This document shows positions 1 to 53,359 of a DNA stretch of 64,000 bases, piece by piece. Under the pieces are notes generated by a model. It saw only the letters and a list, made by a program, of their open reading frames with translations, made no database searches and was not told the DNA's origin. This stretch comes from Nitrosopumilus sp. (GTDB lineage: Archaea; Thermoproteota; Nitrososphaeria; Nitrososphaerales; Nitrosopumilaceae): NCBI GenBank assembly GCA_965207075.1, contig CBDBLO010000002.1:1952001-2016000 (forward strand). The letters run 5' to 3'. Numbering within the stretch: the first letter of the stretch is position 1; each line of letters starts with the position of its first letter. A program made the position numbers and the translations under genes.

Positions 1-183
1 AGACACGTACATGCACCAGATTGTACTTCTCACCCCTTCCCCCTCTCACGCCAAGGCTACGGATTTGGGCGTCAGACAGCGGCAAGAACGCGGTACTGTT
101 TCCAATTCGTGATATGGGCGTCATGTACCGGGATCGTCGCCATAGACCATCATGTTTATAACATATTCGCCCCCACTTTGGAT

Positions 184-753: not shown

Positions 754-921
754 TCATGCATATTCATATGTCTTTCTGTCAAGGTACGCAAATATATCAA
801 GATTGAATTTTGCTGTTCTATAATATTCTGATACCACATTGCGCATATCCTCAAAAGTGGGATAATATTCCGAGTTCATGACGTCGTGTTTTCCCCTGCC
901 CCAACGGTGCTCCGAGGCATT
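754..921 (-). pseudogene. C-terminal fragment of IS630-family transposase (continuation of 2599-3450)
   Basis: The minus frame reads NASEHRWGRGKHDVMNSEYYPTFEDMRNVVSEYYRTAKFNLDIFAYLDRKTYEYA*. This continues the LPKASPYL motif interrupted at 2599, giving the IS630 SPxLNxxExxW motif. Confidence 0.75.
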
Positions 922-991
922 AGACAATATGCGTAATTGAAGAAAAAATTAAAACAGGCACACATAATGAAGACATATCACGGTGATTCTA

Positions 992-2541
992 GGCGCTTTG
1001 GGGAATTAATCGCATGCGGGAGCGCATAGCCAGGGCCGAGAATTAGTTACGGCTCCAAAAATGTCGTAAAAATGCCCGAATTTCGGCTAATTATGGTGAC
1101 TGCGGCCGCGGAAAAATCCCGACGGGAGGCCGGCTTTTCCGCGATTTGTTTTTGGCGGCGGCAGCCGGCGGCAGGCTGCCGCCGGCGGCACGTCAGCGGC
1201 CCTTTCCGCCGCCGCCGCCACCCAAGACGGACTGCCAGTGGCAATACGTGCCTTTTCGGAGCATGAGCCTCGCGTTGGCAAGCCCGCACGCGACGTTGAA
1301 CTCGGCGTTAAAGCCCTCGAGGGTCCCCTCGTATATGGACGAGACGCGCCTGTAGTGCTTGACGGACGCGATGGCGTTCTCCACTGCGACCCTCTCCTTG
1401 GACAGCCTTTTGTTGTGCCTCTTCTCCTTTTTCGTGAGCTCCCCGCCCCTCGGCTTCCTTATCGGGGTCACCACGTCGGCGCCCGGCAGGTCCTTGTCCA
1501 GGCCTTGGAACCCCGGGTCGCCGAGCACCCGGAGGATCATCCTGCGCGTCCTTTTGGGCGGGTCGGCCTTGAGCACGTCGTCCGCGAACGCCCCGAGGCC
1601 CTCGATGAGATCCCTGGTTATCGTAATATCGTGCGCGCGGCCCTCGCGCGTGCGGCTGATCGCGATCACCATGCCGTCGGGCATGGTCATGAGCACCGTG
1701 TTTCCCGTGTACGCCTTCTTCTTGCCCGAGTACATGGCGTCGCGCACCTCCTTGCCCTGCGCCCTGACGAACCGGACGTGCGTCCCGTCGACCAGTATGG
1801 TGTCGGCCGCCACGCCCCCGGGGAACAGCGCGGAAAACTCCTTGGGCGAGTGGGCGTGCCGCAGGACATCCATGAACCTGTGCGGCGTCGGGAGCATCGT
1901 CGCCAGTATGCGGTCCGCGACCCTGATGTACCTGCACACGGCGGCCTGGTCGACGCCGAACATGACGCCCAGCTGGTCCTGGCAGTTGTTGCGGTACTTG
2001 CGTGTCAGGTCGAGCAGCAGCACGTACGCGGGGTGGAGCGCGCACCTGTTGCCCGGCTCCGACGCCCTCATGGGATCGTCGCGTACGAGCGGGACGTTCC
2101 TGATATAGTCCTCGTACGCGTCCGCGGCCGGGCGCGGGCCCCTCTTTCCCGCGCGCGCCTCCCCGTACTGCCGCCTCCTCTCGATCTCCTCGGCCTCCAT
2201 GACCTCCCACCTCGCGACAAAGGCGCGGTACAGCATCCCGAACTCTTCGCGGTTGTACCCGGTCATCGCGTGCAGTTTTGCATCAGACGCCAGCACTCTT
2301 CTCAGGCTCGCAAGACACAGTTCCGTGTCTCCCGCGCTTTCCAGCAGGGTTCCGGTGGCAGGCACGTCCGACAACCAGTCTTTTTCCTCCGCGCCGTCGC
2401 TGACGCAGAAATATTGATCATCGCCTCCATCTTCGGCCTTCCACGCGGCCTTTAACATCCGCATTCCCATGCCGCATTACCGCGGAGTTTGCTTATAGAT
2501 CTTGTGATTAAGATCACTTAACCCGTTTTCTGGGCAGAGCC
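992..2541 (-). mobile_element. IS5-family (ISL2/PIF-Harbinger-like) insertion sequence
   Basis: CTAG at both ends (989-992, 2541-2544) and imperfect TIRs (ggcgctttggggaa vs ggctctgcccagaa). Encloses a transposase ORF. Confidence 0.65.
1193..2470 (-). CDS. IS5-family transposase (HTH_Tnp_4 + DDE_Tnp_4)
   Basis: Motifs LGVMFGVDQAAVCRYI, ILVDGTHVR, YSGKKK, GRAHDI, GDPGFQG, HNKRLSKERVAVENAI. Confidence 0.9.
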   Translation of the reverse strand: MGMRMLKAAWKAEDGGDDQYFCVSDGAEEKDWLSDVPATGTLLESAGDTELCLASLRRVLASDAKLHAMTGYNREEFGMLYRAFVARWEVMEAEEIERRRQYGEARAGKRGPRPAADAYEDYIRNVPLVRDDPMRASEPGNRCALHPAYVLLLDLTRKYRNNCQDQLGVMFGVDQAAVCRYIRVADRILATMLPTPHRFMDVLRHAHSPKEFSALFPGGVAADTILVDGTHVRFVRAQGKEVRDAMYSGKKKAYTGNTVLMTMPDGMVIAISRTREGRAHDITITRDLIEGLGAFADDVLKADPPKRTRRMILRVLGDPGFQGLDKDLPGADVVTPIRKPRGGELTKKEKRHNKRLSKERVAVENAIASVKHYRRVSSIYEGTLEGFNAEFNVACGLANARLMLRKGTYCHWQSVLGGGGGGKGR

Positions 2542-2598
2542 TAGGCACAAAATTGTCCATGCTCATTATGAATATGCCTATTACGCATATTGTCTAAT

Positions 2599-3450
2599 AA
2601 GGTACGGAGAGGCCTTGGGCAGCTAAATAATCTCGAGGTTTTTGTTTTTGTCGAACTTCTTTTTCATCATTTTGGATTTGTGCGTGGATGCGCGATTCAT
2701 TATCAGTGTGACTTTTTTAAAGTGTCGGAGAAGGGCCCTGACAAACGGGATGAACGTCTTGCTGTTAAAACCCACGGTCGTGGTTCTAAAGAGCTGCCGC
2801 CCCTTGTCAGTAATTGCTCCCAGCACTGTCAGCCTCTTGCGTCCCTCCGCATGTGTAACCTTTACCGGGGTTCCCATGGGGGACCAATACTTGTGACCCG
2901 CCGCGTCATTATGTATGAAGAATGCCTCGTCCATCGCCGCAACGGCGAATCCGGCCCTTTTCGGACGTACAATGCGCCTCTTCGTCCGGTGGCGCTGCGA
3001 GCTTGTCGTCCCGCTGCCCGCGCGTATGGCGCGCCGCGGTGGCTGTCTTGGTGGAGGGCCCGGCCCTCCCTACATGAGCCTCCTGACGTACGTCGCGTGG
3101 AACAGGATCCTCTCCCTCCCTTTTGACGTACCTTGTGCGGGGGTTCCGCGGGGCGGTCTCTGCCCGTCCCGCCCGACAGCATGTCATCCATCGTCGCCCG
3201 TCTGATCTTCGGAGGCCTTCCGCTACCGGGAGGGCTAAGGGGCGTCTACCCCGCCCTCCTCAAACCGCCTTGCCCGCGCCAAGACCCGGTTCAGACACCG
3301 CATGAGCGAGTTAGCCTGCGCGCTGCGCGCTCTCCGGGTTGCAATACGCTGCGTTCACCGCGGCCATCCTCTCGACCGCCCTTGGATCCTTTTCCCTTCG
3401 GTAGACCTGTTTGGGCCCGCTACTGCCCTTTGCGAGTAGTTTTTAGACCC
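2599..3450 (-). pseudogene. IS630-family transposase pseudogene (N-terminal and central part)
   Basis: DDE_3-type motifs MDEAFF...YWSPMG...LTVLGAI...FNSKTFIPFV...IMNRASTHKSK, an in-frame stop before LPKASPYL, and frameshifted HTH remnants (YRREKDPRAVERMAAVN, RFEEGG, GSGRPPKI). Confidence 0.8.
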
Positions 3451-5853: not shown

Positions 5854-7233
5854 TTATTGCATCTCTAGGATTGCTTCTCTTTGTGTAATGCTTTCTATTC
5901 CACTCGACAGGTCATTGCTTGCCCTTCGCAGTTGATCCTGCAGTGACTTTCTGGTCTTCCATAGAGTCTCGTGATCTCTCTCCTCCTTGCTCTGTAGTGT
6001 GAACAGGTCCTCGTTGACTCTGTGGAATGATTCTAGAATCATTGAGAATTCACTGCTGTTTATGTACTCGTACAGTTTTGACTGTTTTGCATCCTGATCC
6101 TCCTTGCTCTTTGTCAGCTTTGATATCTCGATTATGCCAGTACGGATCTGCCGTGCCACCTCTGTCACTATGGAATGATTGACAAGTAGTACGCCGTCTT
6201 GGTTTCCCAAGAGTCCGTTGGGTACCGATTTTTTGGGCAAGTTGCGTGCAACTATAAGTACATAATTGGTGCCGTGAATCTTTTTGTACTTTTTTGCTTT
6301 TTCAATGTCCTTTTTTGTCACAGTGGCGGCAGACTTGTTGTCGTATACGATCAGTGTGTCCAAGAATCCAGTCGTTGTACGTATCTGTTGAATCAAATCC
6401 CCGCTGGAGGTTCCCCTCTTCTGTCTTTTGAACAGGTCATCGGTAAAGGTGTGCGTCAAGGTGGCGTACAGATCCTGTTCCCCGACCTCGCCCTTGAGCT
6501 CCGGCTGTGTTTTGGCAATCTTTAATTCTTCAAGATCTTTGTTGGCGCGCTCGATCTGAGTCTCTTTTTGCCTCAGGTCATCTTCTAGTTTGAAAACACG
6601 TTCACTAAACTCATTTCTCACTGAGCTTTGAATTTCTTTTTTAAACGAAATTTGATTCTTCTTCATCTGCTGAATTTCTCTATTCTTTTCTCCAAGTTCT
6701 TTCTTGAGTCTTTCTTGACCTTCCCTCTTGAGATCTGCCTGCTCTTTCTTCATGTCACGAATCTGTCGGGCTTTCTCTTCAAGATCTTTTTTGTGGGCGG
6801 ATTTGACTTCGCGCTCATACGTCTTTAGTCTCTTCTTTTCCACCTGAATCATTGTGTCATAGTTCTGTTTTTGTTGCCTACCCAACTCCTCAAACTGCTT
6901 TTGGTTTTGTTTGGTGATTTTTTCATAGTTTTTTTCCATGTCGGCGATTTGTTTGTCGTGCATTGACTCTAAGCTCTTTTTTAGTTTCTCTACCTCTTCG
7001 TCATGGATGACTTGGTTGCTCTTCTCTTCCTTTTTGTGTTGTTCTTCAAGTTTTCTTATTTGTTCTTCATATTTTTCGGCTCTCTTCTTCCCATCCTGCT
7101 CGTATCTCTGTTTGACTTCAACCTCTAGTTGCGAGCGGGCCTTGACATACTCGTCAGATGCAAGGGGCTTGTTGCATAATGGGCACCTTGTATCTTTCAG
7201 GTCTAGAACCTTTGCCTTCATATGGCTCTGCAT
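5854..7233 (-). CDS. DUF2130-like coiled-coil protein with N-terminal Zn knuckle and C-terminal nuclease-like domain
   Basis: CPLC, a long E/K coiled coil, then KGEVGEQDL...F..D....K.G..GD..Q...IVYDNK. The DNA is noticeably more AT-rich than its neighbours. Confidence 0.75.
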   Translation of the reverse strand: MQSHMKAKVLDLKDTRCPLCNKPLASDEYVKARSQLEVEVKQRYEQDGKKRAEKYEEQIRKLEEQHKKEEKSNQVIHDEEVEKLKKSLESMHDKQIADMEKNYEKITKQNQKQFEELGRQQKQNYDTMIQVEKKRLKTYEREVKSAHKKDLEEKARQIRDMKKEQADLKREGQERLKKELGEKNREIQQMKKNQISFKKEIQSSVRNEFSERVFKLEDDLRQKETQIERANKDLEELKIAKTQPELKGEVGEQDLYATLTHTFTDDLFKRQKRGTSSGDLIQQIRTTTGFLDTLIVYDNKSAATVTKKDIEKAKKYKKIHGTNYVLIVARNLPKKSVPNGLLGNQDGVLLVNHSIVTEVARQIRTGIIEISKLTKSKEDQDAKQSKLYEYINSSEFSMILESFHRVNEDLFTLQSKEERDHETLWKTRKSLQDQLRRASNDLSSGIESITQREAILEMQ

Positions 7234-13852: not shown

Positions 13853-15102
13853 GGCGCTGTCCAACTTTTCACCGCCAAAGTCACGAAAAGCTTAAAGATC
13901 ATGACGCGCCCCGGTGGCAAAGCTTATTGATCATATTGTAATCGCCACGTCAATGGCTTCCAAAAGAAGCAGGAAGGACGACAAGAGAAGACAGGATGCC
14001 CATGTGCGGGCGTACAAGGCGGAACGGCGAAGGCAGAAGATCAAGGAGTGCCGCGACTACAAGACGTATGAGAGAAAGCGAAGGGGCGAGGGCAGGGTGA
14101 AAAGGATCAGGATCAAGCAGCTAGCAAAACTGATCCGCGACACCCTGCCAGACGCCACCGATACGAACGTTTCCAGGATCGTGTGCGTCGTAGACATGAC
14201 ATACCGCGGCCACTCGTACCGCAGACACGTCGAGTACCTGGATGAGCATTCAGGCTCCGTAAGCATGTACGGGCTAAAAAGAGTTCCCTCAAAATCCGGC
14301 CTCCACGGCTGGGCAGGAGAGCTTGCAGACGACATGGAGTTCGTGCTGGGGCTCCTCGCCGGACAGGCAGGGGACGACGCGCGCGGTACCCTGCTGGGCG
14401 ACTCGTCGGGGTTCTCCATAGTGAAATACGAGGACTGGGAGGACGCCAAGCGCGGGATCATATCCCGGCGCGAGTTCAACAAGCTCCACATACTGGTCGC
14501 GCCGCACGGCAGGATCGCGACGTGCGCGATAACCGCGGGGCGGCGGCACGACTCGCCGGTGTTCCGGGAGATGTACGGGCGCATACCGCAGGGAAGTGGC
14601 CGCACCATACTGGACGCCGCGTACCTGTGCAAGGCAAACTGCAAGGTGATCGCGCGCAGCGGGCGCAGTCCGGTCATATGCCCAAGGAGGAACTCCCGGG
14701 CAAGGGGGCTGCATCCGATGGGCCAGATGCTGAAGTGGTACGAGAGCGACCGTGACGGGTTTGACAGGGCATACCACCAGCGGAGCCTGGTAGAGACCGC
14801 GTTCTCCGTCATCAAGGAGAGGTTTGGCGCCGTCGCGCGCGCAAAGACGTTCCGCATGAGGCAGCTGCAGCTCGCGCTAAAGTGCGTCTGCTACAATCTC
14901 GTCGCCTGATTCTGCATCCGTCCGCAGGGGAGCAGTGCACCCCCCAGCGTACGCTGCAGACTGATGCGCCACACGCAATCAAAAACCGGAGACTTGCCGC
15001 CGGACATGCCACAATTGCGGCAGAAACGGACCCGCCCATCGCCCAAAGCCTGCTTAATTGTCCATAAAATTGGGGCGCGGCTTACAAGAGTTGGACAGCG
15101 CC
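13853..15102 (+). mobile_element. IS5-family (IS903-like ends) insertion sequence, 1250 bp
   Basis: TIR ggcgctgtccaact at 13853-13866 and agttggacagcgcc at 15089-15102. 9-bp TSD gcgggtgac at 13844-13852 and 15103-15111. Confidence 0.92.
13953..14909 (+). CDS. IS5-family DDE transposase
   Basis: DSSGFS, KLHI, HDSPVF, LDAAY, YHQRSLVETAFSVIKERFG. Confidence 0.9.
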   Translation: MASKRSRKDDKRRQDAHVRAYKAERRRQKIKECRDYKTYERKRRGEGRVKRIRIKQLAKLIRDTLPDATDTNVSRIVCVVDMTYRGHSYRRHVEYLDEHSGSVSMYGLKRVPSKSGLHGWAGELADDMEFVLGLLAGQAGDDARGTLLGDSSGFSIVKYEDWEDAKRGIISRREFNKLHILVAPHGRIATCAITAGRRHDSPVFREMYGRIPQGSGRTILDAAYLCKANCKVIARSGRSPVICPRRNSRARGLHPMGQMLKWYESDRDGFDRAYHQRSLVETAFSVIKERFGAVARAKTFRMRQLQLALKCVCYNLVA

Positions 15103-16547: not shown

Positions 16548-18002
16548 TCAGGGAAGGTGTATGGTGCCAAAGCCGTACTCGCTACACGTCTGGTAGTGGG
16601 CGTGAATCTCTGCCTCCCACCCCCTGCCGCGGTCAAGCATGTCAAGCGATTCTCTCAGCTTGGGGATCTCGTCGCGGTGCCTGCGGTTTCTCTCCACGAG
16701 CCCGTCACGAAACTCGTCCTCCGGAAGCGAGTTGCTCTTTTTGCAGTTGCACGGCTGGCAGGCCAGCACCATGTTCCACGCGTTGTCGTCGTATATGTAC
16801 GTCCACGGGATCAGGTGGTCCACCTGTATGCAGCCGGGCTCGAGCCTGTCGCGGCAGTAAAAGCAGCAGTCCGTGAACGGTCTGAACATGTTGTGATACT
16901 CGGTCAGCGCCTTCCTCTTGGCGTCCATCATCTCGATCTTTGTCATGAGCCTCGGCAGGGTCGGGTTTATCGGCTCGAGGAACCTTGTCCACTCTACGAG
17001 AACGGCCTTTGAAAGCAGCGCGTAATACTTTTGGAAGAACTCAAACGCCTCGGGTTTCAGCGTGATGGCTTGCTCGTCGTCGTCATAGTCGTAAAACGAC
17101 CGCACCTCCACCGTCCGGTTTCCGACGGGGACCCTCTGAAAGCGTGGCACCACTATTGAGGTCTTGGATCTGGCGTGCCCGAACACGTTTTTCAGTACGA
17201 GCCTCCTGGCCCTGTCCTTGTCGTTTCTGTCAAGGAGCGAGTAGTCGCTGGGCGTGCTCTCCCCGAACACACCCCTGAGCTTTGTTATGGCGTGTGGCAC
17301 GTGCTTTGCGTCATAGTTCTGGCGCATGTGCAGCACGTACTCCTGGTGCCAGTAGTACCTGAGGAACTTGTCGGCCAGGTACTCGTATGGTATGCGCAGG
17401 ACTGACTGCCTTTCTTCCCCCTCTTCCTCCCGGCCCGCGCCGCGGTAGTCGCCCCGGCAGTACTCCAAGATGGCGCGTGCGAGTGCGAACTTGTACGTGT
17501 TGGCCTTTGAGCCGTGACTCAGTATGGACAGAAAGCTCTTGGCCAGTCCGGCGTACGACGTGGCCGGAGACGCCCTGGCGTACGACGCGGGGCGCAGCCC
17601 GCCCGGGTCGATGGCTGGCAGCCTCGAGGGATCCGCTAGGCGGAAGACCCCTAGGCGTCCGCCGGCCCTCCAGTCCGCGATGCACCCCCTGGCGCGTAGC
17701 GCCGAGATCTGCGCCATGACGGACTGGTAAAAGTCGACTGCCAGTATGCCGCCCCCGAGCACCATGTTGCGGTCAAGGTTCAAGAGATCGGCTACCTGCT
17801 CGATAACGCTGCCGGCGCCGTGCCACACGGCGTCATCTCTGTGGATGCGCTGCGTCAGGTCCCCCCTGCCGCACGTCCTGCCCCGCGCATCCTCCATTTT
17901 GGAGATGGTGCTGCCGGGCCCGCGCACGACCTGCGCGAGTGCCCACATGACCATCTTTCCGGAGGGCAGTACCGGGGGGCTGCCCGTAGCAGGGCCGTGC
18001 AT
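16548..18002 (-). CDS. HNH endonuclease with N-terminal winged-helix-like extension
   Basis: NTYKFALARAIL motif and C-terminal CFYC...QVDHLIPW......WNMVLACQPCNCKKSN.LP. Start codon uncertain. Confidence 0.85.
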   Translation of the reverse strand: MHGPATGSPPVLPSGKMVMWALAQVVRGPGSTISKMEDARGRTCGRGDLTQRIHRDDAVWHGAGSVIEQVADLLNLDRNMVLGGGILAVDFYQSVMAQISALRARGCIADWRAGGRLGVFRLADPSRLPAIDPGGLRPASYARASPATSYAGLAKSFLSILSHGSKANTYKFALARAILEYCRGDYRGAGREEEGEERQSVLRIPYEYLADKFLRYYWHQEYVLHMRQNYDAKHVPHAITKLRGVFGESTPSDYSLLDRNDKDRARRLVLKNVFGHARSKTSIVVPRFQRVPVGNRTVEVRSFYDYDDDEQAITLKPEAFEFFQKYYALLSKAVLVEWTRFLEPINPTLPRLMTKIEMMDAKRKALTEYHNMFRPFTDCCFYCRDRLEPGCIQVDHLIPWTYIYDDNAWNMVLACQPCNCKKSNSLPEDEFRDGLVERNRRHRDEIPKLRESLDMLDRGRGWEAEIHAHYQTCSEYGFGTIHLP

Positions 18003-18452: not shown

Positions 18453-19040
18453 TCACGCGCCCCTCTCCTTGAGTCGGCCGAGCAGCACACCGAGGTCCGG
18501 ATCGTCCTGCACGTCCCCGGCCCACAAGTCCGACACCCGCTCGACCACGTCCGGCGCTATATCGATACCAGTAGTGATTACGGCGTGGGCCGCGCTCTTC
18601 CGGACCTCCGAGCTGTCATCAAGCAGCGATTCGGCCAGCACCCTCCCCACTTCGGGACCACCCGCGTGCATGTGCCCCAGGGCTCCCACGGCGCACGACC
18701 TTACCATGGACCGCTTGTCGCGCGCGAGCTTTACCAGTTCCGGAATCGAATCGGTCTCATTCCTGTTTGCAAGTATCAGCGACGCAAAGCCGCGCACGTT
18801 CTTGCTTGCGGAGTCCAAGCCCTTTATCAGGTGCTCGTATATGCGGTTCTCGTTGAGTATCAGCGAGCTGAACGCCTCGCCCCTCACCCGGATGTCGTCG
18901 TCGTCGAGCCTTGCAATCATCTTTTCTATTATGTCGGGGCGATCCGTGGCGGCAAGCCCCTCAAGGACGCTTATCTTTTGCGCGCTGTCACCTGTCTCCA
19001 GGATCCGTGCAACGTCGTTCAAGTCAAGGCAGATTGGCAA
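18453..19040 (-). CDS. HEAT-repeat protein
   Basis: Repeated L.D....VR..A...L units. Confidence 0.85.
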   Translation of the reverse strand: MPICLDLNDVARILETGDSAQKISVLEGLAATDRPDIIEKMIARLDDDDIRVRGEAFSSLILNENRIYEHLIKGLDSASKNVRGFASLILANRNETDSIPELVKLARDKRSMVRSCAVGALGHMHAGGPEVGRVLAESLLDDSSEVRKSAAHAVITTGIDIAPDVVERVSDLWAGDVQDDPDLGVLLGRLKERGA

Positions 19041-19074
19041 CGCAGGTTAATAATGGTAACAGTCAGCGGTCCTG

Positions 19075-19128
19075 TTGTGAATTCATGAGCTGACTAGAGA
19101 CGGCCGACAACTCACGAATTTGCAACAG
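19075..19128. repeat. Palindromic 54-bp site A (inverted copy at 19970-20023)
   Basis: ttgtgaattcatgagctgac-tagagacggcc-gacaactcacgaatttgcaacag; 46/54 identical to the reverse complement of site B. Confidence 0.85.
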
Positions 19129-19154
19129 AAACCAGAAACTGAAAAGCCCAACGC

Positions 19155-19550
19155 TCAAGGCGTTTTGCCTACCAACGTCCAATCCAACCAAATCCAAGAA
19201 TTAATGCTGGCGCCGGCCGCAGCGATGGAGCCCAGCAACGCCAGAAAGATTACTCTACCGGTGAGCCCCTCCGCCCGGATCTTGACGCCCAGCATATCTA
19301 GGCGAAACGGCTCTTGCTTGCCGCCCTTGTTTTCCTTGACCTGTTCAAATTTCCGGTCCATCACGATCCTTGCGCATTCGAATATCTTTTCGGTGGGCAA
19401 TCCCGCCACACGGCCGATCAGACGAATCGCTCCGATGACGATTACGGCAAGCAACACGGCAGCACCAATCCAAATGACAATGTCCGCTACCACAAGGATC
19501 GCTGATTGCAGCATGACAACAACTTCGGCTAGCGTATCAGTCAGATTCAA
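19155..19550 (-). CDS. Hypothetical membrane protein (two hydrophobic segments)
   Basis: 131-aa ORF with N- and C-terminal TM-like stretches inside the repeat-flanked cassette. Start uncertain. Confidence 0.55.
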   Translation of the reverse strand: MNLTDTLAEVVVMLQSAILVVADIVIWIGAAVLLAVIVIGAIRLIGRVAGLPTEKIFECARIVMDRKFEQVKENKGGKQEPFRLDMLGVKIRAEGLTGRVIFLALLGSIAAAGASINSWIWLDWTLVGKTP

Positions 19551-19618
19551 CCCATGACCATGCGGGCTATGTTTATTTCAACGTAGCGTTCACCAGTATG
19601 GCAAGATCCACATTTGGC

Positions 19619-19927
19619 CTAGGACGTGACCGGCTTGATGATGTAGATTGGTGGGCCGGATTTTTTGTTTGTACCGTATTCGTATATCTGGACGGACCTT
19701 ACGCCGCGTTTTTTCAGCATGTGTGTGTACGCCTCCTTGTCGCACGTCATCAGGTCGCAGCCGCGTTCCAGACAGAATGATGCAAGTTCCGAGTCGGAGC
19801 TGTCGGCGGCAAGAACATCCGGTTTGCCCACGCGATGAATGTCGGAGTAATCTTTGCGGATTTGCGATTCGTTATCGGTTGACCATCCCGCCAATTGATA
19901 GTCGATCAACACGCCGCGGTTCATCAA
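19619..19927 (-). CDS. PIN-like (DUF5615/Mut7-C type) domain protein, putative RNase toxin
   Basis: VLIDYQL ... SSDSELASFC...G..LMTCDK pattern, matching the acidic-residue spacing of DUF5615-type PIN domains. Confidence 0.6.
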   Translation of the reverse strand: MMNRGVLIDYQLAGWSTDNESQIRKDYSDIHRVGKPDVLAADSSDSELASFCLERGCDLMTCDKEAYTHMLKKRGVRSVQIYEYGTNKKSGPPIYIIKPVTS

Positions 19928-19969
19928 CGGTGCATGCTCGACACGTCATTTATTGGTATGTCTAATCGG

Positions 19970-20023
19970 CTCTCGCAAATTCGTGAGTTGTCAGCAGTCT
20001 CTGGTCAGCTCACGGATTCGCAA
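19970..20023. repeat. Palindromic 54-bp site B (inverted relative to site A)
   Basis: ctctcgcaaattcgtgagttgtc-agcagtctctg-gtcagctcacggattcgcaa. Confidence 0.85.
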
Positions 20024-20196
20024 GAACCCAGCCGGTATCGCGTTTCTCGGCACGGCGGGCGGCATAGCCGGCACCGGCGGCATGCCTGCATGCTTGCCGG
20101 GCGTCAAACGGCCGCGCGGCAAGAAAGGCTCTCAACACTTTTAAAACCAAAGTCTAGAGCCCAGTCTGAGAATGATCCAAAAGGTGACTACAGGCA

Positions 20197-20583
20197 ATGG
20201 CAAAGGCATATTACGTTAAGTTCGAGACGCCCGAGGATCTGGTAAGCCCGATTCTGGAGGCCGTCCGCGTGGCCGCGACAAGCGGCAAGGTTAGAAAGGG
20301 CACAAACGAGGCCACAAAGGCCATAGAGCGCGGCACCTCAAAGCTGGTGGTTATAGCAGAGGACGTGGAGCCCCCCGAGGTGGTGGCCCACCTGCCCATA
20401 CTGTGCGAGGAGCAGGGCGCGGCGTACGCGTTCGTCCCCTCAAAGGACGACCTGGGCAAGTCCATCGGCATAGACATCACGTCCGCGGCGGCAGCGATAC
20501 TAGACCCCGGCGATGCCCAGCACATAGTCGACCAGGTGGTCGCATCCATAGCCAAGATAAAGGACGGCGCTGACGGCAAATGA
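20197..20583 (+). CDS. rpl7ae: 50S ribosomal protein L7Ae
   Basis: [44 protein letters not shown]-like ttttaaaa at ~20139. Confidence 0.97.
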
Positions 20584-32771: not shown

Positions 32772-34607
32772 GTACACCCTCAGGTCGTTCGACATGGAGC
32801 CACGGGCTGACGCCGTCCCGTTCGCGTCAGGCGGGATCGTAACCGGAGGCCGGGGTGCGCGCCATCCGCCTGATTCTGGCGCGCGCCGCTCACGCGGCCA
32901 CCGCGGCCCTGTCCCGGGGCGGGCCGGGCCCGCCAAAGACGGAGTATCTGGTGCCGTCGGGGTTTGTGAGCGAGTACGGGGTGTCACCGGCCCTCTCAAA
33001 CAGGCTCCAATCGCGGTCAAGCAGGTATTCCAGGAGCGCCCTGCCCGGTGAAACATTTTGCCGGTGGCATGTGCGGGTGAACGTGAGGAGGACCGACATC
33101 AGGAGCCTGCCCCCTGCCGTCATGGTCTTGCGCCTGACGTTCCGCTGCGGTATGAGCCCGTCCCGTATCTCGCGCTCCACGTCGTTGCTGTGCGGCGACA
33201 TTCCCGGGTGCGCCTGGAACGTGAACAGGTTGGGAATGGCGTTTAGCAGGTGCGTTCGGAACCCGGGATCCTCGTACGACGCGGCGATCGCGTATGCCCG
33301 CCGCGAGAGCTCCATCATGGTGAGCGGCGCCAGCGTCTTGATCCGCTTGGCGTCGCGGTACAGCCCGAGCAGCATGTCGTACCTTGCCTCGTCTTCCGGT
33401 TTTTTGCCGACCACCGCCACCCTTTCGGCCTTGCGCAGTATGTGGACAAAGTCCCGCTGTATGGTGCCGGTCAGCTCCGGGTACCCGGCGTAGCCGTCGC
33501 ATGTCACGGGCTTGCCCCGGAGCCACGCAAAGTGGACGGAGAGCACCGAGGCGGACCTGGTCGGCGAGAACAGGACGAACACCGCGGCGGGCGTGTACGC
33601 CACCCAGACGTATCCGTGGTGCCCGTCGCCGCGCCCGTACCTTGACTCGTCCATCTGGATGTGCGGCCGGAGCTGAATCATGCGCATTATCCGGGCGAGC
33701 ATGCCCGACTGTATGTGCGTGGAGACCGCGCTCCTGCCGTTTCTCACGGCGTTGGGACTCAGCTCGAAGCCGAATATGCCGCGTATCATGTCCGCGATGC
33801 CCTCGTCCGTGTTTGCCGCCGCAAACATCATCAGTATGACCGACAGCAGGACGGGCCCAAGCGACGTCCCGTCAAGAAACGGGCTCGGCGCCCTGAAGAC
33901 GCGGCCGCAGGACGGGCACCCGGCCCTGCCGATGACCGCCATGGCGCACTGCACCGCGTAACACGCGTCAAGGTCGTACACGAGCTTGCACGCGGGACGC
34001 ATCCCCGCGAGCGGCCTTTTGCAGCACTCGGACACCGCGTCGTCCACGGGGTAGTACAGCGGCGGAAGGGTGGCCCTGTTGTGGTGCGAGGCCCCGGCGT
34101 GGCCGACCGGGGGCCCGATCCTCCCGCCGCTTGGACCGCGAGTGACGTCGTCCTCATCGCCGCCGTCCTCCCGGCTGATCTTTTCCCCGGGCCCGCCCTT
34201 TGGGTCCTCGCCGCGCCTCCTCCGGAACTTGTCGCGCGCACCGTTATAGCCTGACGGAGTCGACGTTGGCATGTTCTCGCTCTCGTAATAGGCAATCTTC
34301 CTTCTCATCCCTTCCATCTCTTCCCGCTGCCTCCGGTTCTCCTCCTCCAGCTCGCGTATCCTCCCAAACGCCTTCCTGAGCTCCCCCCTCAGCAGCTTGG
34401 ACTCTGCGCCGCCCGTCTGAGCATCAAGGAGGATCCCAATCGTGTCCTCCAGGCTGTCAATCCGGGCGTGCAGCCTTTTGATATCCTCTCGCAAGGCTTC
34501 CTCTGACACGCGGACGGTGTCACGGGGTCGGATCTAAAGCTTGTGAACTGTTTTTGTACACCATTTGGTCAATTTTCACACATTTTGATTTCGACCTGAG
34601 GGTGTAC
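32772..34607 (-). mobile_element. IS66-family (single-ORF, ISBst12-like) insertion sequence, 1836 bp
   Basis: 16-bp TIR gtacaccctcaggtcg at 32772-32787 and cgacctgagggtgtac at 34592-34607. 8-bp TSD gccacggg at 32764-32771 and 34608-34615. Confidence 0.92.
32890..34509 (-). CDS. IS66-family transposase
   Basis: N-terminal coiled coil, STPS, GHAG, CPSCG, QMDES, YVWV, TCDGYAGY, QRDFVHILR, SNDVEREIR. Confidence 0.9.
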   Translation of the reverse strand: MSEEALREDIKRLHARIDSLEDTIGILLDAQTGGAESKLLRGELRKAFGRIRELEEENRRQREEMEGMRRKIAYYESENMPTSTPSGYNGARDKFRRRRGEDPKGGPGEKISREDGGDEDDVTRGPSGGRIGPPVGHAGASHHNRATLPPLYYPVDDAVSECCKRPLAGMRPACKLVYDLDACYAVQCAMAVIGRAGCPSCGRVFRAPSPFLDGTSLGPVLLSVILMMFAAANTDEGIADMIRGIFGFELSPNAVRNGRSAVSTHIQSGMLARIMRMIQLRPHIQMDESRYGRGDGHHGYVWVAYTPAAVFVLFSPTRSASVLSVHFAWLRGKPVTCDGYAGYPELTGTIQRDFVHILRKAERVAVVGKKPEDEARYDMLLGLYRDAKRIKTLAPLTMMELSRRAYAIAASYEDPGFRTHLLNAIPNLFTFQAHPGMSPHSNDVEREIRDGLIPQRNVRRKTMTAGGRLLMSVLLTFTRTCHRQNVSPGRALLEYLLDRDWSLFERAGDTPYSLTNPDGTRYSVFGGPGPPRDRAAVAA

Positions 34608-42343: not shown

Positions 42344-42913
42344 TCAGGAAGTCGGCATGTTACGCTTCCGTCCGGTTGTGGGAAGCACCGCCCCGATATT
42401 GTACGAGCCGTCTTCCTCCCACGGGTGGATCATGAGGCCGTACGTGCCCCCCTTGGCAATGGCGTCTGCAACCGACACGCCTGACACCGCCCGGTACTCG
42501 GCTCCTCCTGCCTCGGAGCGAAGCAGAAACCTGCCGCTTTCACGATCCGCATCCAGCACCCTAAAGGTATCGACGAGGATCCTGTCCGCGCGCCGTATCC
42601 TTGACGCGATGTCCGGATCACGGACGCGCTTTTTGGCATAATCGTCAACCAGGCGCGTCTTGGTTCCGGGCAAGATCGCCGCATACGTACCCCATACGTG
42701 CGACACGAAATAATCCAGATCCTCGCTATCAAACTCGTACGGGCACTCTATCGCATACGTGTCGATCAGTTCGTGGTGGTGCTCCATCAGGTAAGTCGAC
42801 ATGCGGTGGATCACGTCGTCGTCCCTTCTTGGGCGAACCATACGGCCGTCACGGAATCTCGTGGCATATGTGTTGCGCGGGCCTGCCCATGGCGGTCGTG
42901 CGGCATACCTCAC
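42344..42913 (-). CDS. Hypothetical protein (island cargo)
   Basis: 189-aa ORF with globular composition (...TRLVDDYA...TFRVLDAD...FLLRS...EYRA...YGLMIHPW). Start uncertain. Confidence 0.55.
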   Translation of the reverse strand: MRYAARPPWAGPRNTYATRFRDGRMVRPRRDDDVIHRMSTYLMEHHHELIDTYAIECPYEFDSEDLDYFVSHVWGTYAAILPGTKTRLVDDYAKKRVRDPDIASRIRRADRILVDTFRVLDADRESGRFLLRSEAGGAEYRAVSGVSVADAIAKGGTYGLMIHPWEEDGSYNIGAVLPTTGRKRNMPTS

Positions 42914-43416
42914 CCACCTTAACGCCCCGCCGGAGTGGTTGCGGCCGCATTGTCGGTTTCGCGTCGGTTCCGTGTTGACATGGGCGAGCTTACACGGGCC
43001 GAGAACCGTCGTCCCCCGTCAGATCTGCCATGCGTGGCAGGCATGGCGAACAAGTAGTATTTTGAAGCATCTGGAAGGCATTGCTTCAAGGCCGTTCTGC
43101 CCACCCTCCCCCCTTCCCTCCCCCTCCCCCCGCCGCCGCACAGGCAGGACGCCGCGATTGGCCGGATTGCCGAGATTCGGAGCTGTAGCTACACCAGCAT
43201 CAGCCCGAGCCAGTACGCCAGCGGGACAGACGCGGAAAAGAGCGCAAATTTTGCCCGGGTAGACCTCGTCTCGAGGGGCTTCCACTGGCCGGGCCCACGT
43301 AATCGAACCGTCTGAAGACGCACGGCATGTTCCCCCCCCCCCCCCGGCCCAGATGCCCAAAGAACCTGCCCAGATCACTGGAGAACCGTGTCACTGCGGC
43401 TTCCAGAGCGGCGGCC

Positions 43417-43829
43417 TCAGCTCGTCCTGAAGGATTGGGCCCGTCTTGCAAGAGCCGCGGCGATCTCATAGTCGTCGTATGCGTATCCGAATATGCCCGA
43501 GTGGGACGCGTCTCCAGGCCTTGGCATGTGCCTGATCCGTATCCGCTTGTTGGCAGCGTCAAGCGCAGCGGACACGGCCGTACCTACGCCAATTACTGCC
43601 ATCCTTCCGCCGGGCTTGACTTCGTAGTCCTTGCCGCGCAGTAGTCTGCAAACCATGCCGGCCGCCTCCGCCACGTCCCATGCTCCGAGATATTCGGCCC
43701 AGTTGACCGACAAGTGATCTTCGTTCCTGCGAATTCGAAAAGCTCCGGCCATTAGTTCCCGTCAACGACGGAAGACGGCTTGCAATACCAGTATGCGTGA
43801 GCTCCCGTCGGAATACCCTTGTCGGTCAT
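43417..43829 (-). pseudogene. Putative toxin-like gene, probably frameshifted near 43758
   Basis: ATG at 43829 overlaps the upstream stop (ATGA). MTDKGIPTGAHAYWYCKPSSVVDG joins (E)LMAGAFRIRRNEDHLSVNWAEY...SHSGIFG if one G is added to the GGG run. Confidence 0.55.
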
Positions 43830-44260
43830 GCGGAGATCAACTTGTCAACGAACGGCCGAATCGCGTTCATCATGTCATCAGGTGGTAGCAGGCCGCCAAG
43901 GCTGCGCTGCCGGGGCGCGGACTCGTATGTGGCAAGAATGACTGCAAACCCGACGTCACCGACGGGCAAAAAGTACATCGACAGCATGTCCCCGCCGGAC
44001 GTATCCCAGGCAATCTCCATAAAGCCCTCGTGGGTGAGGCCTATGCGCGGGCATGGCAGGTGACGCCGCGTTATGATAAAAGCGGCAAACCTTTGCAGCG
44101 ACTCCAAGTCGACGGTCGGCTCGTCGGGATCGTCGGCGGCCAGTCCGTCAAGGTGCGTGATGCTCTTTGCTATACGCGGATCCATGTTGTCTTGCTCCAT
44201 CACGGCGACAACGTCCTTGCAGCTCTTGGTTAACGCGATCTGCCCATCCTGTGAAACCAC
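43826..44260 (-). CDS. Hypothetical protein, putative antitoxin/immunity partner
   Basis: Acidic 144-aa ORF (P.PRIGLTHEG..EIAW....LSMYFLP.G.V.FAV) translationally coupled to the downstream gene. Confidence 0.6.
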   Translation of the reverse strand: MVSQDGQIALTKSCKDVVAVMEQDNMDPRIAKSITHLDGLAADDPDEPTVDLESLQRFAAFIITRRHLPCPRIGLTHEGFMEIAWDTSGGDMLSMYFLPVGDVGFAVILATYESAPRQRSLGGLLPPDDMMNAIRPFVDKLISA

Positions 44261-44772
44261 GCGCTCATGGTGGTACTGCGTGTCCGCAGCATATTACGTT
44301 TATCCGGCCGCGACTGTATGCTTTCACGCCACTGCAGATTCATGCCCGAGTGAGTCTCACACAGTGCAAATTTAGGCACAAAAAAACGGAGGCGAGGATA
44401 TGTCGTAATCACTCCACGCCCCCGTATAAAAAGGGGGTTTAGTCCCTAGCCTTCATCGCCAGGTTCTTCACGACTGTGCCAGCACTCGTCGTTATTTGGA
44501 CTACGCTGGTTTGCGTGCTTGTCTAAATCGGATTGCCTGTTCATTTGCATTTCACCCCCCGTCTCCCAACGTTTTTTTCAGAAAAAACCGCAAGACTTGT
44601 TGGCAATGACGCGGACTCAAGTTTTTGTATATTCTTGGCCCGGTAGGCCTGAGAATGGTCGGACGTTAGGCCGGTAGCGGTAGCAACGGCTGCAACGGCG
44701 GCCGCAGCAACACCGTAACAGGCCGCTGCGGCGACGGCCGCGGTGACCGCATCTGCCACAAAACAAAGCAAC

Positions 44773-44902: not shown

Positions 44903-47900
44903 CTACCTGCAGACCTTCGGGGCGGCGAGCGTGGGTGGCACGTCCCGGACGATCACAGTTACGGTGTCGGCATCGGTGGCGCCGTCGTCGTCAGTGACGG
45001 TGAGTGCGAACGTGTAACCGGTGTCGGCCGATACCGAGGGCGCCGTGAAGGTGGGAACCGCAGTGTTGTCGTTCTGGAGGGTTACGCCCTGCGGGGCGGC
45101 CCAGGTGTACGATACAATGGAGCCGTCGGGGTCCGAAGATCCGGATCCGTCAAGCGTCACAGCGTCGTCCTCGTCGACTGTCTGGTCGGGCCCCGCGTCC
45201 GCGGAGGGCGGTGAGTTGGGTGGTGGGGGTGTTGGCGCGGGCATGCGCACCGGCGTGTCCTGAACGGTCACGGTGGCGGTGGCGGTGGCGGATAGCCGGC
45301 CGTCAGACACTGTAAGTGTAAAGTTGTATTGGGTGTCCGCAGAGACTTGGGGAGCCTCAAACGACGGGGTCGCGGTGGCGGCATTTTGTAGGGTTATACC
45401 GGAGGGCGCCGTCCAAGCGTACGTTATGGCATCATTATCAGGATCCGAGGAGTTGGAACCGTCGAGACGCACAGTGTAACCCTCATCCACGGACTGGTCG
45501 GCCCCTGCCTCGGCGGCGGGGGCCCTGTTGACGTGCCGAACCGTTATGGTTACGGTGTCGGTATCGTGCAGCGTGCCGTCAGTGACGTTGAGCGTTATGG
45601 TGTAGGGGGTGTCAGACGCGACATCGGGGGCCGTGAAGGACGGGGTGGCCGAACTGGAGGTCTGCAGGGCAGGTATGGCAGGCGACGACGTCCAAGAGTA
45701 CGTCAGCCCGTCGTTGTCGGGATCCGAGGAGCCGGTGCCGTTGAGGTTCACGGTGGCGCGCTCGTCCACCGCCTGGTCGGCGCCGGCGTTTGCGGCGGGG
45801 GCCCTGTTGACCTCCCTGACGGTGACGGTGACGGTGTCCGTGTCCCACAACTGGCCGTCAGTGACGTTGAGCGTTATGGTGTAGGGGGTGTCAGACGCGA
45901 CATCGGGGGCCGTGAAGGACGGGGTGGCGGTGGTGGCGCCGCTGAGCGCTATGGCCGCAGGAGCCGTCCAGCGGTACGTGAGGGCGTCGCCGTCCGGATC
46001 GGAGGAGGACGAGCCGTTGAGGTTCACGGTGGCGCGCTCCGACGCGGACTGGTCGGCCCCTGCCTCGGCGGCGGGGGCCCTGTTGACGTGCCGAACCGTT
46101 ATGGTTACGGTGTCGGTATCGTGCAGCGTGCCGTCAGTGACGTTGAGCGTTATGGTGTAGGGGGTGTCAGACGCGACATCGGGGGCCGTGAAGGACGGGG
46201 TGGCCGAACTGGAGGTCTGCAGGGCAGGTATGGCAGGCGACGACGTCCAAGAGTACGTCAGCCCGTCGTTGTCGGGATCCGAGGAGCCGGTGCCGTTGAG
46301 GTTCACGGTGGTGCGCTCGTCCACCGCCTGGTCGGCGCCGGCGTTTGCGGCGGGGGCCCTGTTGACCTCCCTGACGGTGACGGTGACGGTGTCCGTGTCC
46401 CACAACTGGCCGTCAGTGACGTTGAGCGTTATGGTGTAGGGGGTGTCAGACGCGACATCGGGGGCCGTGAAGGACGGCGTGGCGGTGGTGGCGCCGCTGA
46501 GCGCTATGGCCGCAGGAGCCGTCCAGCGGTACGTGAGGGCGTCGCCGTCCGGATCGGAGGAGGACGAGCCGTTGAGGTTCACGGTGGCGCGCTCCGACGC
46601 GGACTGGTCGGCCCCTGCCTCGGCGGCGGGGGCCCTGTTGACGTGCCGAACCGTTATGGTTACGGTGTCGGTATCGTGCAGCGTGCCGTCAGTGACGTTG
46701 AGCGTTATGGTGTAGGGGGTGTCAGACGCGACATCGGGGGCCGTGAAGGACGGGGTGGCCGAACTGGAGGTCTGCAGGGCAGGTATGGCAGGCGACGACG
46801 TCCAAGAGTACGTCAGCCCGTCGTTGTCGGGATCCGAGGAGCCGGTGCCGTTGAGGTTCACGGTGGCGCGCTCGTCCACCGCCTGGTCGGCGCCGGCGTT
46901 TGCGGCGGGGGCCCTGTTGACCTCCCTGACGGTGACGGTGACGGTGTCCGTGTCCCACAACTGGCCGTCAGTGACGTTGAGCGTTATGGTGTAGGGGGTG
47001 TCAGACGCGACATCGGGGGCCGTGAAGGACGGCGTGGCGGTGGTGGCGCCGCTGAGCGCTATGGCCGCAGGAGCCGTCCAGCGGTACGTGAGGGCGTCGC
47101 CGTCCGGATCGGAGGAGGACGAGCCGTTGAGGTTCACGGTGGCGCGCTCCGACGCGGACTGGTCGGCCCCTGCCTCGGCGGCGGGGGCCCTGTTGACGTG
47201 CCGAACCGTTATGGTTACGGTGTCGGTATCGTGCAGCGTGCCGTCAGTGACGTTGAGCGTTATGGTGTAGGGGGTGTCAGACGCGACATCGGGGGCCGTG
47301 AAGGACGGGGTGGCCGAACTGGAGGTCTGCAGGGCAGGTATGGCAGGCGACGACGTCCAAGAGTACGTCAGCCCGTCGTTGTCGGGATCCGAGGAGCCGG
47401 TGCCGTTGAGGTTCACGGTGGTGCGCTCGTCCACCGCCTGGTCGGCGCCGGCGTTTGCGGCGGGGGCCCTGTTGACCTCCCTGACGGTGACGGTGACGGT
47501 GTCCGTGTCCCACAACTGGCCGTCAGTGACGTTGAGCGTTATGGTGTAGGGGGTGTCAGACGCGACATCGGGGGCCGTGAAGGACGGCGTGGCGGTGGTG
47601 GCGCCGCTGAGCGCTATGGCCGCAGGAGCCGTCCAGCGGTACGTGAGGGCGTCGCCGTCCGGATCGGAGGAGGACGAGCCGTTGAGGTTCACGGTGGCGC
47701 GCTCCGACGCGGACTGGTCGGCCCCTGCCTCGGCGGCGGGGGCCCTGTTGACGTGCCGAACCGTTATGGTTACGGTGTCGGTATCGTGCAGCGTGCCGTC
47801 AGTGACGTTGAGCGTTATGGTGTAGGGGGTGTCAGACGCGACATCGGGGGCCGTGAAGGACGGGGTGGCCGAACTGGAGGTCTGCAGGGCAGGTATGGCA

Positions 47901-50900: not shown

Positions 50901-53104
50901 TCCGTGTCCCACAACTGGCCGTCAGTGACGTTGAGCGTTATGGTGTAGGGGGTGTCAGACGCGACATCGGGGGCCGTGAAGGACGGGGTGGCCGAACTGG
51001 AGGTCTGCAGGGCAGGTATGGCAGGCGACGACGTCCAAGAGTACGTCAGCCCGTTGTTGTCGGGATCCGAGGAGCCGGTGCCGTTGAGGTTCACGGTGGT
51101 GCGCTCGTCCACCGCCTGGTCGGCGCCGGCGTTTGCGGCGGGGGCCCTGTTGACAGGCAGGTTCGCGCTCAGAGTTACCTGCCGCGTGAGGGTGGTGAGC
51201 GCACCTATGTCGATGATCCTACCGGTAGACTCTATGCACACGCTGTACGAACTCTGGGCAAGGGCGCTGGGGTTCAGCTTCAGGACGTTGTCCGATATGG
51301 AAAAATCCTCATTGTCGTCACATCCGGTGCCGGTTACGAGGGAGTAATTCGGGTTGTGGCCTGTCAGATAATCGTTCTGGGGCGAGATGAGGGCCGCGAA
51401 CGAGCGGTCCGTTCCCACGTCCGTGGTGTTGAGCTGTATGTACCAGAGCCCCAGGTTCGGGTTGAAGGAGGAGGCGTGGGCGAACATATGGTTCATGTCG
51501 GTCACACCCGACACGTCCCACGCGGAGATGTCTTGGTTGAAGGAGAAGGCGTAGGTGAACATGTAGCTCATGTCGGTCACGCCCGACACGTCCCACGCGG
51601 AGATGCTCTGGTTGAAGGCTAAGGCTTCATAGAACATGCGGTTCATGTCGGTCACGCTGGAGGTGCTCCACGCGGAGAGGTCACCATCAAAGTCCCAGGC
51701 GTCTTCGAACATGCTGCTCATGTTGGTCACGCCCGACACGTCCCACGCGGAGATGCTCTGGTTGAAGACAACGGCGCCGGAGAACATATAGTTCATGTCG
51801 GTCACACCCGACACGTCCCACGCGGAGAGGTCGCCGTCAAAGAGGACGGCGTAGGCGAACATGCTGCTCATGTCGGTCACGCCCGACACGTCCCACGCGG
51901 AGATGTTTTGGTTGAAGACATTGGTTTCATAGAACATGCGGTTCATGTCGGTCACGCTGGAGGTGCTCCACGCGGAGAGGTCGCCGTCAAAGAGGGAGGC
52001 GTCTTCGAACATGCTGCTCATGTTGGTCACGCCCGACACGTCCCACGCGGAGATGTCTTGGTTGAAGGAGGAGGCGTAGGCGAACATGTAGCTCATGTCG
52101 GTCACGCCCGACACGTCCCACGCGGAGATGTCTTGGTTGAAGGAGGAGGCGTGGGCGAACATGTAGCTCATGTCGGTCACGCCCGACACGTCCCACGCGG
52201 AGAGGTTGCCGTCAAAGAGGTGGGCGTAGGCGAACATGCTGCTCATGTCGGTCACGCCCGACACGTCCCACGCGGAGAGGTTGCCGTCAAAGAAGGAGGC
52301 GTAGGCGAACATGTAGCTCATGTCGGTCACGCCCGACACGTCCCACGCGGAGATGTCTTGGTTGAAGGAGGAGGCGTGGGCGAACATGTAGCTCATGTCG
52401 GTCACGCCCGACACGTCCCACGCGGAGAGGTTGCCGTCAAAGAAGAAGGCGTCTTCGAACATGCTGCTCATGTCGGTCACGTCGGAGAGGTCGGGCGAGT
52501 CGGGCGCGTAGAGTCTCATGTTGCTCGCGCCCTTGAACGCGGATGCCATGGACGTCCACGACGCGTTGCCCCACTGGTCGATGCTCCGCAGCTGGGCGGC
52601 GTTTGCAGGGTCGCCACCCAAGTATATCCGGGTAAAGTCGCCGGATATGTTGACCGCATAGTCGCCCGGCTCATCGTATGTGTGCGATATGTCACCGGAC
52701 ACGCTGGAGTTGGTGGTGCCGTCGCCCCAGTCCACAGTGTAGGAGCCAGTGGCGCCATCCACAGGTATCGTTATGGCCTTGTCGGTTTCAGTGGCCGCCC
52801 ACGTGGTGACAAAGTCCGTAGAGTCGGCCCACGCGTACTGGAACATGCCGTGGCCGCGGGCTCCCTGATCCGCGTCCCATTCCCACCAATCTCCGGCGCT
52901 CCACGCGTTCTTCCCACCACCATCATGACAACAGCAGCAGATTAGCAAGCATGCCGCGCACAACCCCAAGTTCGCACACGTGGCGCGACGTGCGGACTTC
53001 GTTCCGTTTGCGTCAGGCGGAACTGTGTGACAGCAGGAACCATGGGCGTGGCATCTATCCGAAGGGTTCACATGCTGTTGCAGTTGCGCGCCCCAATTTA
53101 ACAT
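44903..53104 (-). CDS. Giant surface protein: PKD domain + DUF285 (BspA-like) repeats + tandem PKD/Ig-like repeats; frame broken at ~48830-50200
   Basis: FVTTW...YTVDWGDG; ~13 25-aa [15 protein letters not shown] repeats; many NRAP.A.AGADQ...V.L.G..SSDPD.D.LTY.W repeats in ORFs 50168-53104 and 44903-48802. Start uncertain. Confidence 0.8.
45490..48830. repeat. Near-perfect 555-bp tandem repeat x6 (two PKD domains per unit)
   Basis: Identical blocks recur at 45609, 46164, 46719, 47274, 47829 and 48384. An alternating ERAT/ERTT SNP gives a 1110-bp higher-order period. Confidence 0.95.
51470..52480. repeat. 75-bp tandem repeats encoding DUF285 units
   Basis: Recurring ...tcatgtcggtcacgcccgacacgtcccacgcggaga... 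every 75 nt. Confidence 0.92.
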
Positions 53105-53139
53105 AACCGGCCAAGATGGGAAAAAACCGAGGCCATGCG

Positions 53140-53350: not shown

Positions 53351-53359
53351 CCTCGCCCT

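Follow-up and report, generated by a model that had tools for sequence, protein, structure and literature searches.

Between the core genes for a HEAT-repeat protein and for rpl7ae lie two small genes, hereafter the cargo, which are bracketed by a pair of related quasi-palindromic sites, A and B (Table 1). The window, meaning the whole 64-kb stretch of DNA that was analysed, represents about 3% of a 2,185,281-base (2.19-Mb) contig. The HEAT protein shows 94% identity to a protein of a Nitrosopumilaceae MAG and some 54% to its counterpart in Nitrosopumilus ureiphilus. DNA enclosed by the two sites has a GC content of 52.2%, versus 61.9% for the window, and 4% of 834-nt windows are equally low. 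An earlier note on this DNA had described a lower-GC interior between these two neighbours, encoding a PIN-like protein and a small membrane protein and free of any recombinase or transposase. Each of these points holds; the gene calls are borne out by DUF5615 likeness and conserved Asp residues in the one protein and by the hydrophobic N-terminal part of the other. High GC in the Nitrosopumilaceae typifies sponge symbionts, among them transposase-rich ones (PMC7848895), and the host presumably derives from a sponge.

Table 1. Coordinates of the paired sites, cargo, neighbouring genes and insertion sequences in the window
Feature	Position	Strand	Remarks
Site A	19068-19133	+	Quasi-palindrome of 66 bp with GG...CC tips; arms of 27-28 bp on either side of an 11-bp centre; probably a minimal MITE
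Site B	19968-20028	-	Inverted copy of A, 61 bp long, likewise with GG...CC tips
Left copy of possible decayed 8-bp target-site duplication	19060-19067	+	Compared with 20029-20036
Right copy of possible decayed 8-bp target-site duplication	20029-20036	+	Compared with 19060-19067
Possible third end of the same family	92-116	+	GG tip and arm; beside low-GC PH-domain gene
Cargo gene 1	19619-19924	-	101 aa, DUF5615-like (PIN-like), Asp D8, D44, D62; TATA-like box 19948-19954
Cargo gene 2	19155-19550	-	131-aa membrane protein, hydrophobic residues ~6-52; TATA-like box 19571-19578
HEAT-repeat protein, flanking core gene	18453-19022	-	Start 19022 by orthologues; TATA-like box 19047-19054, outside site A
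rpl7ae, flanking core gene	20197-20583	+	PF01248, E 2e-26
IS5-family element, intact	13853-15102		14-bp perfect ends, perfect 9-bp duplication, 331-aa transposase
IS66-type single-ORF element, intact	32772-34607		16-bp ends, perfect 8-bp duplication
IS66 fragment	53031-53612		Near tRNA 53930-54013
IS5-like element	919-2598		Perfect 19-bp ends
IS630 fragment	2623-3069		Adjoins IS5-like element 919-2598

The window is rich in insertion sequences, with three elements bearing terminal repeats in 64 kb, two of them flanked by perfect 8-9-bp duplications. The intact IS5-family element begins with a GG-N-N-CTGT tip, but its ends diverge from the site arms after base 8, and no insertion sequence in the window has ends that match the arms. 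Pfam searches of 41 of the 51 called genes and of 82 further frames in the gaps revealed neither an IS6 transposase nor any enzyme of the tyrosine, serine or HUH classes. Eight of the ten remaining called genes we take to be housekeeping genes, and the other two to be doubtful frames. Within the phylum, IS6 elements of other Nitrososphaerota occupy 35 rows of a published survey, with many of the longer type among 30 of these 35 rows (PMC6563490).

Several other features of the window may be recorded here. Low-GC DNA beside the IS5-like element carries a PH-domain/SHOCT gene (184-663), and a second low-GC stretch (39-46%) at 5857-7233 contains a DUF2130 gene. Two genes away from the cassette is a gene (16548-18002) for an HNH endonuclease of 484 aa. 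At 42344-44293, where GC is slightly lower, there are three ORFs without a Pfam match, and positions 61762-63831 encode a protein of 689 aa with a Schlafen group 3 DNA/RNA helicase domain. The region 44903-53104 is taken up by a very long PKD/DUF285 repeat surface-protein gene whose 555-bp units are identical at the DNA level; it is frameshifted around 48800-50200, which may reflect either an assembly error or real repeat instability.

Cargo genes

Judging from its homologues, the product of gene 1 is probably a PIN-like protein and a candidate nuclease. Its close relatives number eight, at 74-84% identity, and 71 representatives make up its wider family, a few of them spurious long repeat proteins. 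An alignment of 36 members shows D44 and D62 in every sequence and D8 in at least 90%. Eleven of the 22 homologues scanned match PF18480 (DUF5615) below the cut-off, with a best E of 2e-4, and in the Atlas the protein lies nearest to Nitrososphaerota clusters, with a value of 0.86 to a DUF5615 cluster. Its structure model (pLDDT 90.7) has no match among solved structures at E<=0.001, the best hits (Z 6.2) being unrelated alpha/beta folds; this lack of a solved-fold match does not speak against a PIN fold. PADLOC flagged none of the 36 PIN-family members, and tblastn with gene 1 against phages and plasmids found no match. The 20 relatives of gene 2, of which 14 are at 73-85% identity and six at 59-68%, differ by in-frame indels. 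Gene 2 itself belongs to no known family in Pfam or NCBIfam, the latter having no match for gene 1 either, and its best Atlas value (0.75) is uninformative.

Four of the eight gene 1 relatives apparently share a contig with a relative of gene 2, and one such pair has the consecutive locus tags OXI27_06140 and OXI27_06145; thus the two genes appear to travel together. This common occurrence in relatives suits a resident pair and a mobile unit equally. No second copy of the cargo is visible in the host 2.19-Mb contig among the clusters listed. In relatives the cargo pair is about 80% identical pairwise, versus 91-94% for the HEAT protein to its nearest clusters, a faster change that may reflect either relaxed selection or exchange. 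None of the HEAT clusters listed (at least 120) has the lengths of the four contigs that the cargo genes share, although the three close clusters comprise 32 more members beyond that listing. TATA-like boxes, identified by eye, lie 21-32 nt upstream of the HEAT gene and of both cargo genes.

Structure and distribution of the paired sites

Compared without gaps, 19075-19128 and the reverse complement of 19970-20023 are identical at 46 of 54 positions and are separated by 841 nt, exactly as the earlier note had placed them, with an interior that it put at about 840 bp. As direct repeats the same segments are identical at only 35 of 54 positions. When A is compared with B by blastn inside the window the match extends over 49 nt (E 3.6e-13), and the pair ranks longest among the 323 inverted-repeat pairs of the 64 kb. 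An ungapped scan finds two full copies of the site in this DNA, A and B only. Gapped alignment lengthens the sites to 66 bp (A) and 61 bp (B), each starting with GG and ending with CC; the inverted pair described earlier therefore stands, but the 54-bp extent given for it had missed these GG tips. The dyad axis falls on a single base in each site (A, 19100; B, 19998), within a centre of 11 nt. Both arms of B are 2-3 nt shorter near the tip, and in the ungapped register this appears as a G-C pair in A and a C-G pair in B at offset 26. Mirrored changes of this kind can arise by template switching between arms. The mirrored difference between A and B could reflect such switching, selection for symmetry, or descent from a second subfamily.

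Sites of this form might serve an unlinked recombinase of the tyrosine or serine type, by which the two-gene cassette would be inverted or exchanged, an explanation that we consider unlikely. The inverted orientation, the dyad arms and the asymmetric centre all agree with it, as does the possession of TATA-like boxes by the cargo genes themselves, and the symmetric arm difference at offset 26 is what would be expected if symmetry were maintained. The centre, however, points the other way. Conservation within the sites is lowest in the 11-bp spacer, with 8 of 11 positions identical versus 17/20 and 19/20 in the arms; the dyads and the 11-nt centre of the earlier description are upheld, whereas the conservation it attributed to the spacer is not. 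Serine recombinase cores are 2 bp long and tyrosine recombinase spacers 6-8 bp, and an odd 11-bp centre suits neither. Spacers of pdif sites, 6 bp long, must be identical or nearly so (PMC13141974). Nor does a recombinase occur among the scanned ORFs of the window.

Searches beyond the window bear on the same explanation. GTDB was scanned with a pattern comprising the inner arm core and a gap of 10-12 nt, which would miss diverged archaeal copies, and eight stretches were returned, none of them archaeal by title and none reaching into the outer arms. Since roughly a dozen matches would be expected by chance (a rough estimate), these are treated as unrelated, and since the host genome is not among the eight the scan is silent on copy number in the host. 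One match (L004) is situated 2.2 kb from a phage integrase gene, in keeping with a recombinase system, but it is bacterial and bears no likeness to the sites beyond the searched core. One integrase was found among the 31 of 38 ORFs near the matches that were scanned. Two Acidobacteria contigs (L004 10001-10060 and L005 5885-5950) have in common a 9-nt motif, which is repeated, and a stretch of 20 nt, with different genes downstream; in L004 these are near ParA-like and integrase genes. The likeness between the two contigs is apparently unrelated to A and B. Site A has no blastn match in plasmid and phage collections, and Rfam has none for either site. A full-text search with two 13-nt arm motifs retrieved no paper. 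Keyword searches of the open-access literature found no such element described in the phylum, and an archaeal MITE list may include the family (PMC11602168). The word MITE is absent from the four supplementary files of the Nitrososphaerota survey, which lists IS families (PMC6563490).

These results also touch on the proposal of the earlier note, namely an undescribed cassette or inversion system acting in trans. A wider version of it would be that a symmetric site of 61-66 bp with an odd 11-bp centre is used by an unlinked recombinase or transposase to bracket, invert or swap small defence-type modules across high-GC Nitrosopumilaceae, the fast-diverging PIN-like and membrane-protein pair being one such exchanged module. 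We regard both the system and this role for the pair as doubtful. A mobile origin dependent on functions in trans is plausible, but the features offered for a new system weaken on inspection: the spacer is divergent, its 11-nt length is awkward and the wobble pairs favour neither strand (see below). The note had itself held that the proposal would fall if only two copies existed or if the motif proved to be a dispersed solo MITE, and the data go part of the way in that direction, with two full copies in 64 kb and no archaeal GTDB match to the pattern tested.

A hairpin function would bring in a different enzyme. The sites may be single-stranded hairpins recognized in trans by an HUH transposase of the IS200/IS605 or REP/RAYT type, although this is improbable. 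All four strands fold better than their shuffles (z -3.25, -3.68, -2.45 and -4.47), three stem mismatches are common to A and B, a clean duplication is not required for such elements, and IS200/IS605 elements are present in Nitrososphaerota (PMC6563490). Good folding, on the other hand, is expected of any palindrome. Neither site has a GTAG or a terminal CGTC tag as defined for REP and REPIN sequences, the single CGTC lying inside the centre of A, and the stems exceed 20 bp as against 5-13 bp for REPs (PMC3733652). No HUH gene was seen among the scanned ORFs. Non-Watson-Crick stem positions capable of wobble pairing (offsets 6-28, A orientation) are divided evenly, five favouring one strand and four the other, so that neither strand is singled out. 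Six of the eight differences between A and B are transitions, an excess that had earlier been read as a mark of retained hairpin or protein-binding structure. The count is correct, but the excess is no sign of hairpin selection; transitions are frequent in the lineage anyway, by the rough proxy that a single one can account for 46 of 72, and for 57 of 83, of the amino-acid variants seen in close homologues of the cargo. Together, the poorly conserved spacer and the strand-neutral G-T wobbles leave the case for recombinase sites or for hairpin selection weak.

The sites could also be retained as regulatory elements, whatever their origin, either as the operator of a dimeric regulator or as RNA hairpins, and this too is improbable. 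The end of each site lies 12-13 nt upstream of a TATA-like box, that of the HEAT gene for A and that of the PIN-like gene for B, these being the next genes on the minus strand; site A begins 21 nt past the stop of gene 2. The two sites are nevertheless oppositely oriented relative to the HEAT and PIN-like promoters, and identity of 87% along the whole length, centre included, suggests a copied unit of DNA. The genes concerned, one core and one accessory, have no evident shared control, and the sites, as noted, match nothing in Rfam. Moreover, MITEs tend to be multicopy and to favour AT-rich intergenic DNA, a preference that would explain the position of A and B equally well (PMC10969869).

Tips, flanks and origin of the pair

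The ends of the sites resemble those of ordinary transposons, which makes decayed miniature transposons a likelier source than any new system of recombination. For 65 short bacterial members, the IS6/IS26 end consensus reads GGTTCTGTTGCAAA (PMC6807381). IS6 elements, bacterial and archaeal members alike, share a GG tip and the motifs cTGTt and caaa, and they generate duplications of 8 bp (PMC7986276). Against the former consensus, which is bacterial, the right tip of site A matches at 13 of 14 positions, with one extra T after the GG, and the left tip at 11 of 14 (PMC6807381). The right tip is the only match of at least 12/14 among the 128,000 positions scanned in the window, and the left tip is one of three at 11/14. 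A match of 13/14 anywhere arose in three of 300 second-order shuffles, a figure weakened somewhat by the choice of IS6, made by recall, among many IS families. The tips of site B score 8/14 and 6/14 without gaps, low values that follow from the shortening of both B arms by 2-3 nt. IS6-type ends of archaea bear only a loose relation to the bacterial consensus (PMC6807381), and since ISAba12-type ends have a similar tip (PMC6382973) the family of the sites cannot be fixed as IS6. A head-to-head IS circle junction, which would have its tips at the centre, was considered and rejected on account of the gap and of the IS-like motifs, which are at the outer tips of the sites. Eleven bp is long for such junctions.

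A further end of the same family may exist at 92-116, where a match of 11/14 to the IS6/IS26 consensus runs on into arm sequence. This stretch is identical to the right arm of A at 19 of 25 positions (none of 300 shuffles reaches 19) and to the left arm at 18 of 25 (22 of 300 shuffles); a four-arm nhmmer profile scores it at E 0.82. It has no partner or hairpin, and its assignment as a third end is borderline. A second arm-like stretch at 202-214, within the start of the PH-domain gene and devoid of a GG tip, faces it at a distance of 110 nt.

The flanks were compared for traces of target-site duplication. Immediately outside the pair, the 8 bp at 19060-19067 and 20029-20036 are identical at five positions and differ by transitions at the remaining three. 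The chance of such likeness is 0.002 with fixed ends, 0.014 when end shifts are permitted and 0.036 for identity alone; among the 12 comparisons of flanks made at 8 bp this match ranks first, and it is also the one that a composite predicts. Neither site has an 8-bp duplication of its own (A, 0/8; B, 0/8). Intramolecular inversion by IS6 would render inner and outer flanks reverse complements of each other (PMC7986276), a pattern not seen here (3/8 and 4/8).

Paired terminal repeats around passenger genes might also mark a single non-autonomous element, such as a mini-casposon, of which A and B would be the two terminal inverted repeats. This we consider very improbable. Casposons do occur in Nitrososphaerota, and their terminal inverted repeats have a median length of 56 nt, some with internal palindromes (PMC4046053; for background see also PMC8464041). 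The sites are, however, unlike the four thaumarchaeal entries tabulated for such repeats when compared by eye, and in the casposons tabulated the two members of a repeat pair hardly differ and have perfect repeats at their flanks (PMC4046053, supplement). Most known casposon targets are 3' ends of genes, ef-2 among them (PMC6563490), and neither cas1 nor polB is present inside the unit.

The explanation that we favour, though by a modest measure of confidence, is that A and B are two minimal MITEs of a DDE transposase family, inverted relative to each other and now decayed. Each site would consist of two DDE-type IS ends 11 bp apart, with arms bound by a transposase encoded elsewhere, which would cut at the GG tips, and two copies would have come to flank the PIN-like and membrane-protein genes in inverted orientation. 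Two variants share this likelihood about equally, and either one alone is tentative. In the first, the whole 961-bp unit would have been inserted between the HEAT gene and rpl7ae by means of its two outer ends, in the manner of Tn5 or TIME-COMP1, leaving an 8-bp duplication that has since decayed. In the second, a single MITE would have been copied locally around a resident gene pair. Divergence of about 13% between A and B, together with the altered tips of B, suggests that the unit is old and probably immobile now.

Prokaryotic MITEs are defined as non-coding, intergenic elements of less than 500 bp (PMC10969869), and examples as short as 41 bp are reported from archaea (PMC11602168; reviewed in PMC10969869). 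The two sites, of 66 and 61 bp, are non-coding and both intergenic, and their imperfect arms of 25-28 bp with GG tips fall within the range of MITE terminal repeats (about 4-30 bp). Points in favour of paired MITEs are the GG...CC tips, the consensus matches of A, the further 11/14 match at 92 with its arm sequence, the 8-bp likeness of the outer flanks, the IS-rich genome and the presence of IS6 in the phylum. Counting against them are the B tips, the lack of an IS6 transposase among the scanned ORFs, the absence of a duplication proper to either site and the degeneracy of the outer one, and the copy number, which amounts to two full copies and one borderline half copy in the 64 kb, about 3% of the contig.

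If A and B are indeed MITEs, they add a very small MITE family, and possibly a MITE-bounded carrier of genes, to the mobilome of the Nitrososphaerota. They would show one route by which accessory genes enter core regions of IS-rich genomes, and their ends would offer a handle for finding the transposase. Such a finding extends a known kind of element and is not field-changing; far greater weight would attach to the sites if they proved to be active recombination sites.

Comparison with known systems

The earlier note had judged the arrangement to match neither pdif modules nor integron attC cassettes nor REPINs, and the features of all three are indeed wanting. Integron attC sites occur in direct orientation, one per cassette, unlike A and B, which are inverted. 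The attC boxes RYYYAAC and GTTRRRY are absent from both strands of both sites and from the adjoining 12 nt (definition, PMC5027507). Like the pdif modules of Acinetobacter, the locus has inverse sites around a small module, which in pdif modules is often a toxin-antitoxin pair (PMC13141974). Sites of the pdif type are 28 bp long (11+6+11), with conserved XerC/XerD arms and matched spacers, and nothing of this kind is found at A and B when the tabulated sites are compared by eye.

ISAba12, which we take to belong to the IS903 group of the IS5 family, has ends that recall the sites described here. The likeness of these ends and of MITEAba12, an element of 113 bp moved in trans, lies in the GG start, a TGTTGC motif and a run of A (PMC6382973); the ISAba12 type differs in its 9-bp duplication, and site A fits the IS6 consensus better. 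With IS6/IS26, site A shares the GG tip and the CTGTT and CAAA motifs, and the locus shares the 8-bp length of the possible flanking repeat (PMC6807381, PMC7986276), but the arms are 25-28 bp long as opposed to 14-20 bp and the tips of B are shortened. The two catalogued IS6 MITEs, at 227 and 336 bp, are far larger than A and B. Functional IS6 composites are direct repeats, whereas A and B are inverted, which counts against an IS6 composite (PMC7986276).

TIME-COMP1 of Pseudomonas is bounded by MITEs in opposite orientation, transposes in trans and duplicates its target, all of which has been shown experimentally (PMC4133298). The MITEs of TIME-COMP1 and of Acinetobacter are 262-502 bp in length, unlike the present archaeal sites of 61-66 bp, which are nearly all end sequence and are known from sequence alone, and the copies in Acinetobacter are identical where A and B share 87%. 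The layout is nonetheless that of TIME-COMP1 (PMC4133298) and of the MITE-flanked integrons of Acinetobacter (PMC6382973, PMC10969869): two miniature elements bracket a set of genes with no transposase inside, and, as in TIME-COMP1, they stand in opposite orientation with the duplication, here a possible and degenerate one, outside the pair.
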